DNA from: a virus | Taxonomy: Duplodnaviria; Heunggongvirae; Uroviricota; Caudoviricetes | Length of the DNA: 11,053 nt | Direction: 5' to 3' (one strand) | Virus record (IMG/VR): IMGVR_UViG_2585427766_000020 | Location: 1-11,053 of that record | Shown here: in pieces, positions 10,850-11,053 of the stretch | Numbering within the stretch: the first letter of the stretch is position 1 | Layout: each line of letters begins with the position of its first letter | Notes under the pieces: generated by a model | Told to the model about the DNA's origin: nothing | What the model saw: the letters and a program-made list of their open reading frames with translations, nothing else | The model's database searches: none | Position numbers and translations under genes: made by a program

Positions 10850-11053
10850 CTAATCAACTGAGGCATTTTTCAGGGCTTTGCCGACACCTTCTTCGTTCTT
10901 GTAGGCCGCGGCGGTATCAATCGAGCGATAACCCACTTCTAACGCTTTTTGAATGGCGGTGATTACTTCCTCATTACTTGCTTGCCAGACGCCCAGTCCC
11001 AGCTGGGGCATGACATTGCCATCCTGTAGCTTAATAACGGTTGGATTAGCCAT
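10850..11053 (-). pseudogene. dkgA: dkgA (2,5-diketo-D-gluconate reductase A) 5' fragment: first ~66 codons host-derived (10857-11053), then 2 element-encoded codons and a stop; gene disrupted by the element end
   Basis: Minus-strand translation from the ATG at 11051-11053 gives MANPTVIKLQDGNVMPQLGLGVWQASNEEVITAIQKALEVGYRSIDTAAAYKNEEGVGKALKNASV, the DkgA N-terminus as I recall it (native continues NREELFITTK; full length about 275 aa). Here it reads ...ASVD-stop. Confidence 0.88.

Follow-up and report, generated by a model that had tools for sequence, protein, structure and literature searches.

PMC2628397, in a passage that cites Summer et al. 2004, characterizes the BcepMu family as Mu-like: its phages have 5'-TG...CA-3' termini, and their Rve-core transposase is a relative of that of Tn552. 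E. coli prophages resembling BcepMu have been described before (PMC11610265), and no published length of the BcepMu target duplication was found in the open-access literature. On the host side, the yqhD-dkgA operon is activated by YqhC (PMC8262776, PMC5297802). Several overlapping aldo-keto reductases are present in E. coli (PMC5297802), and a dkgA knockout had little or no phenotype toward glutaraldehyde (PMC8262776). In the stretch of DNA analysed here (the window; 11,053 nt), the 5' part of dkgA abuts an element that is classified from its genes as a BcepMu-type (Mu-like) transposable prophage of roughly 37-38 kb.

The minus-strand ORF at 10850-11053 translates into 67 amino acids, MANPTVIKLQDGNVMPQLGLGVWQASNEEVITAIQKALEVGYRSIDTAAAYKNEEGVGKALKNASVD, followed by a stop. 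The right edge of the window, 11053, is the complement of its ATG, and the product reads MANPTVIK...GKALKNASVD-stop on the minus strand; the coordinates given in the first-pass annotation coincide with this ORF, stop codon included. Four features define this end of the window:

10857 to 11053, minus strand: 5' fragment of host dkgA, nt 1-197 (codons 1-65 and 2 bases of codon 66), 100% identical to E. coli SK1144 and to the empty site of NT1F34
10850 to 10856, minus strand: tail of the chimeric ORF, consisting of element DNA (third base of codon 66, codon 67 GAT and the TAG stop); prophage terminus kept in other insertions
10857 to 10862, minus strand: one copy of the target-site duplication, CTCAGT in the dkgA sense (dkgA nt 192-197); the same hexamer abuts the other prophage end in contig QZLQ01000096.1
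10834 to 10856, minus strand: prophage terminus, TGATTAGACTTGAGATAAATGAC when read inward; it pairs with the opposite end as an imperfect terminal inverted repeat and is unchanged in 4 other insertions

The first-pass annotation had recognized the DkgA N-terminus in this ORF, and a base-by-base comparison bears this out, since dkgA nt 1-197 match the intact dkgA of SK1144 at 197 of 197 positions. The first mismatch is dkgA nt 198 (window 10856), and across the next 155 nt identity is 21%. The break, which had been placed after codon ~66, in fact follows the second base of codon 66. This codon is composed of GT from the host and T from the element and still encodes Val, while codon 67 is GAT for Asp instead of the native Asn. 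Both GAT and the TAG stop are derived from the element, as are the last 7 nt of the stub ORF taken together, so that the proposal of an ...ASVD-stop ending within element sequence was accurate: these codons belong to the prophage terminus. Nucleotide 198 is C both in the NT1F34 empty site and at the second junction described below, and it is T in the window. Because C is found in the closest genome with an empty site and at the second junction, the T at 10856 can be assigned to the element as the first base of its TG terminus, and the junction base is therefore unambiguous, with dkgA nt 197 at 10857 and the last element base at 10856. Alignment to an uninterrupted dkgA, which the first-pass annotation had proposed as a check, thus set the exact junction at 10857/10856. 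The 196-nt host part (10858-11053) matched annotated dkgA in 5,424 of the 5,426 complete E. coli genomes; in 4,591 of these the identity was 99% or higher. It occupies 5,428 places in these 5,424 genomes and is nearly always single copy.

Many complete E. coli genomes contain the sequence to the left of 10856 with 100% identity, beside a different host neighbour each time (hycH, prophage lom, a fimbrial gene, gcd, prpR and others), and in the complete E. coli genomes the matches to the element end always break off at window 10856-10860. Four independent full copies, located in lom, gcd, prpR and hycH, are 36.9-38.5 kb long with TG...CA ends; they start with TGATTAGACTTGAG and finish with GCGCGGCGCATCA. 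They are flanked by the 6-bp direct duplications GCACAT, CGTGAC, CGTCGG and AACAGA, which are unrelated in sequence. With the dkgA copy included, termini of the form TGATTAG...GCGCATCA are present in five insertions at five sites (lom, gcd, prpR, hycH and dkgA), and each of the five carries a different 6-bp duplication. Alignment of the two prophage ends, read inward, showed TGAT (positions 1-4) and GATAAATG (positions 14-21) in both; the terminus at 10834-10856 is presumed to be the binding and cleavage site of the transposase. Shared ends combined with 6-bp duplications of unrelated sequence point to DDE transposition with a 6-bp stagger and not to site-specific integration. Site-specific integration into dkgA was considered separately and is ruled out, as the same element end adjoins many different genes. 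Coliphage Mu duplicates 5 bp of its target, and a 5-bp duplication of the Mu type is likewise ruled out here by the 6 bp seen in all five insertions.

The second junction was predicted from the rule given by the four full copies, that is, the end CATTTATCGCGCGGCGCATCA followed by CTCAGT and then by the rest of dkgA, and the resulting 27-mer was scanned against metagenome_contigs, a metagenome/WGS collection. Exactly one contig, QZLQ01000096.1, contains it. This contig reads from the prophage end into CTCAGT, then CAACAGAG and onward through dkgA nt 828, followed by yqhG; on its other side are prophage genes for the invertase and the tail. A further contig, QZLQ01000292.1, was reached via the IS1-truncated prophage ORF of the window and is 100% identical to window 31-11053. 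Both contigs belong to the NCBI draft assembly GCA_003604455.1, and both halves of dkgA are therefore present in one genome. Neither junction pattern had a match in viral_contigs. When the element and one copy of the hexamer are removed, the result differs from the uninterrupted locus of NT1F34 at 1 of 1,396 nt and encodes the same DkgA protein, and the 10.2-kb flank of NT1F34 is 99.9% identical to that of the insertion lineage. Judged from the two contigs, dkgA is split, not deleted. The suggestion that its 3' part could be located in the assembly was thus correct (dkgA nt 192-828 in QZLQ01000096.1), but the part does not lie elsewhere, as had been supposed; it adjoins the opposite end of this prophage. 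The existence of this reciprocal junction with its 6-bp duplication, together with the occurrence of the same element end beside unrelated host genes elsewhere, upholds the reading of the window's edge as a true insertion junction.

The prophage at dkgA was read as two arms of 10.5 kb and 13.2 kb. In the window it comprises the following:

329 to 10856, plus strand: early (transposition/regulation) arm of the BcepMu-type prophage; aligns without gaps, at 99.57% identity, with the prophage of E. coli RIVM_C036569
4128 to 5897, plus strand: DDE (Rve-core) transposase, 589 aa (Pfam rve; tblastn)
5908 to 7074, plus strand: AAA+ transposition ATPase, 388 aa as called and also called with 388 aa in public contigs (Pfam AAA_22, E 4e-20)
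10306 to 10695, plus strand: mor-family activator of late transcription, the last gene before the prophage end (Pfam Mor, E 1e-43; Mor family in the RefSeq copies)

Toward the junction, Pfam identifies a divergent HTH_3 repressor, a small winged-helix protein, a DUF3102 protein, rve and AAA_22, and further on Mu Gam, a DUF2786/DUF7168 protein, GemA and Mor. The position of the ATPase (5908-7074) beside the transposase suggests a MuB/TniB-like role. In complete genomes this block is one arm of the prophage, and lysis, head, contractile-tail and tail-fibre genes and a Gin-like serine invertase are found beyond the repressor. By tblastn the identity of the transposase is 98% with Escherichia phage PhiKM, about 69% with the Burkholderia phages BcepMu and phiE255 and about 57% with Pseudomonas phage B3; against BcepMu NC_005882.1 it is 68.7% over 98% of the protein. 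None of the 69 tblastn matches at E<=1e-5 was to Mu, D108 or SfMu, and rve alone was matched in the window's transposase, with no Mu-specific transposase Pfam domain.

The left end of the window belongs to an insertion sequence:

1 to 328, minus strand: IS1 end (left inverted repeat and insA), inserted in an accessory gene of the prophage; 99.7-100% identical to IS1 of P1, SfIV and others

The left inverted repeat, ending in GGCAGCATCACC, ends at 328, and InsA domains were called in locus L011. Because window 1-328 is an IS1 end, public short-read contigs of the dkgA locus stop about 10.55 kb into the element. The accessory gene hit by IS1 (window 302-1096, minus strand) encodes a 401-aa protein, which is cut after residue 256 and receives 8 IS1-encoded residues; an intact homologue of 401 aa is located at L009:10797-12002. 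A weak PADLOC match (E 8e-5) links the lost residues 262-394 to the Kiwa defence protein KwaA; Pfam has no match for them. At window 1099-2106 on the minus strand, directly after the repressor gene, is a homologue of the 37-kDa nucleoid-associated protein (Pfam NA37, E 1e-80), which had no PADLOC match. The gene for the 401-aa protein and this upstream NA37-family gene may together form a pair of defence-type cargo genes, disabled in the window's copy. The interval between repressor and holin appears to be a swappable cargo slot when window 329-2700 is compared with L006:9490-12120 and L009:9309-12762. In the window and in RIVM_C036569 the slot holds NA37, the 401-aa protein and a Dam-type methylase (PADLOC MTase_II, E 4e-115), and in IAI39, EBJ003 and LC-1302-2020 it holds three different genes together with a different repressor. 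The LC-1302-2020 copy also carries an IS66-family insertion (ISEc23) among its head genes (L008:19796-22212), so IS insertions seem common in these prophages. Near the far prophage end, the Gin-like serine invertase (Pfam Resolvase and HTH_7; L009:36628-38870, L010:1284-4651) adjoins oppositely oriented tail-fibre and tail-fibre-assembly genes; the arrangement resembles a G segment, an invertible switch of host range. L010, the contig with the second junction, and L009 differ most strongly in this segment (77-93% identity). A 2,610-bp inversion has been described in a BcepMu-like prophage of E. coli (PMC11610265).

The dkgA junction is absent from all 5,426 complete (RefSeq) E. coli genomes. 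Across public assemblies from ENA, Logan and NCBI, 53 indexed blocks list exactly this 67-aa product, and the same neighbours were found in all 24 contigs that were read among its carriers. Three loci that were compared with the window differ from it by 0-1 mismatch over 10.2 kb. Since the junction and the IS1 are shared and the copies are near-identical, we infer a single origin of the dkgA insertion, that is, one ancestral event in one lineage and not a hot spot. The literature searched yielded nothing on dkgA together with a Mu-like prophage or on the assembly QZLQ/GCA_003604455. Only the dkgA site is new to that literature; the phage belongs to a known family, and RefSeq already contains near-identical prophages.

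The locus is very probably the product of one DDE transposition, in which a BcepMu-type prophage entered codon 66 of dkgA and was then inherited by the lineage. The target, dkgA, is the second gene in the YqhC-activated yqhD-dkgA operon, here in a commensal-type E. coli. By the presumed chemistry, the transposase would join the 3'-OH CA ends of the element to target strands cut with a 6-bp stagger, and gap repair would duplicate CTCAGT (dkgA nt 192-197). The 5' piece of dkgA is closed by the phage-encoded Asp and stop to give 67 aa, and the promoterless 3' piece would lie about 38 kb off, at the other end of the prophage. IS1 probably landed in the prophage later. We consider it unlikely that the dkgA halves came to flank prophage DNA through recombination between related prophages or IS1 copies (an inversion or translocation), or through a prophage deletion beside IS1. 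Such an origin would be in keeping with the interruption of the prophage by IS1 at 328/329, where every short-read contig ends, and with the 2-4 related copies of the element end held by many E. coli genomes; moreover, the middle ~14 kb of the prophage at dkgA lies outside the two arms that were read. However, the two junctions carry the exact 6-bp duplication of one transposition and together rebuild a perfect empty site, whereas an exchange between two independent insertions would leave different flanking hexamers. Both prophage arms are, in addition, more than 99% identical to one reference prophage.

The repeated finding of the same junction in many samples and assemblies could also be read as a sign that dkgA nt 192-197 are a preferred or site-specific attachment site, hit repeatedly and independently in different strains. 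This is highly improbable, as other copies of the element are located in unrelated genes next to unrelated hexamers and 0 of the 5,426 complete genomes have the dkgA junction, and because the public copies that were compared share the IS1 or are 99.99-100% identical over 10-11 kb, which argues for common descent. There is next to no chance that the junction is an assembly chimera or that the divergence reflects a cluster of point mutations in dkgA. The latter, which the first-pass annotation had named as one finding that would overturn it, is ruled out by the drop in identity from 100% to 21% at one base. Identical junctions in independent ENA, Logan and NCBI assemblies, the existence of the reciprocal junction and the rebuilt empty site also speak against an artefact of either kind.

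The consequences of the transposition for DkgA can be read from its two pieces. The stub has a PF00248 match of 35.9 bits and spans positions 2-57 of the 291-position aldo-keto reductase profile. From our own inspection of the sequence, it would presumably keep the equivalents of Asp46 and Tyr51 of the catalytic tetrad of aldo-keto reductases, and would presumably lose those of Lys76 and His107; the cofactor site and most of the barrel would be missing too. In the 3' fragment, which sits downstream of the outward-reading invertase gene, the first in-frame ATG is that of Met106. The full-length reconstructed DkgA matches PDB 1MZR (E 4e-188). A complete (alpha/beta)8 domain is encoded by neither half, so that dkgA is a pseudogene in two pieces and neither piece should be able to fold as an (alpha/beta)8 reductase. 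Given the extent of the stub and the lack of an early start codon in the 3' piece, loss of DkgA activity can be safely inferred, and the proposal that the strain has no functional DkgA is supported at the level of sequence. Rescue by a second copy, which had been left as a proviso, is improbable in view of the 5,428 places in 5,424 complete genomes.

Genes of the yqhC and yqhD types (an AraC regulator and an Fe-ADH) are located upstream of the stub in L003 and L005, and yqhG follows the 3' half of dkgA in the contig with the second junction, in the same order as in NT1F34. The insertion thus has the precise chromosomal anchor that had been expected of it, between yqhD and yqhG, and yqhD, the first gene of the operon, is intact. 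A mild effect of the loss is expected, because paralogous reductases exist (PMC5297802) and the dkgA knockout showed little phenotype (PMC8262776); with yqhD intact and the activities of other aldo-keto reductases overlapping that of DkgA, the physiological cost is probably small. A terminator scan found no terminator-like hairpin between the mor stop and the prophage end (10696-10856). A promoter-like site at 10747-10774 on the plus strand points outward, antisense to dkgA' and yqhD, and transcription could cross the prophage/dkgA junction either way.

The dkgA insertion is an ordinary insertional knockout, a textbook case of Mu-type mutagenesis of a dispensable, redundant gene. It is very unlikely that the dkgA::prophage allele owes its fixation in a widely sampled lineage of E. 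coli to being of use, beyond being merely tolerated. If it were, one possibility is that the loss of the NADPH-consuming DkgA spares NADPH during aldehyde stress. Another is that the location of the prophage end directly downstream of the aldehyde-inducible yqhD promoter, where no terminator-like site separates mor from the junction, ties YqhC-driven read-through, antisense to the early operon of the phage, to prophage control. The value of the locus lies mostly in annotation: the exact right end of the prophage is fixed at window 10856, a BcepMu-type phage of E. coli is seen to make 6-bp duplications, and dkgA can be recorded as a split pseudogene in this lineage. The junction of AAAATGCCTCAGT with TGATTAGACTTGAG is a lineage-specific marker by which the strain could be followed in metagenomes.

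Compared with described systems, the prophage at dkgA resembles BcepMu in its Rve-core DDE transposase with an adjacent AAA ATPase, in its Gam, GemA and Mor homologues and in its TG...CA termini. As in BcepMu, the early operon runs toward one end with the lysis and structural genes divergent, and many different insertion sites are used with a short duplication. It differs from BcepMu in its host, E. coli, in its accessory cargo and in carrying IS1, and its 6-bp duplication was measured on the E. coli copies. PhiKM (PQ738613.1) and the RefSeq prophages of IAI39, CE10 and RIVM_C036569 are E. coli relatives of the BcepMu family. With coliphage Mu the element shares a temperate way of life, near-random transposition that inactivates the gene hit, TG...CA ends, homologues of Gam, GemA and Mor, and a Gin-like invertase beside the tail-fibre genes. 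Unlike in Mu, the duplication is 6 bp and the early operon has an orientation inverted with respect to that of the late genes, and the transposase has no similarity to MuA detectable by tblastn at E<=1e-5. As for the host gene, the insertion has its counterparts in the Keio delta-dkgA mutant and in the yqhD/dkgA silencing of furfural-tolerant strains (PMC8262776, PMC5297802), in which DkgA is likewise lost from an otherwise viable genome, whereas the knockout described here is natural, is caused by a prophage and leaves yqhD intact.
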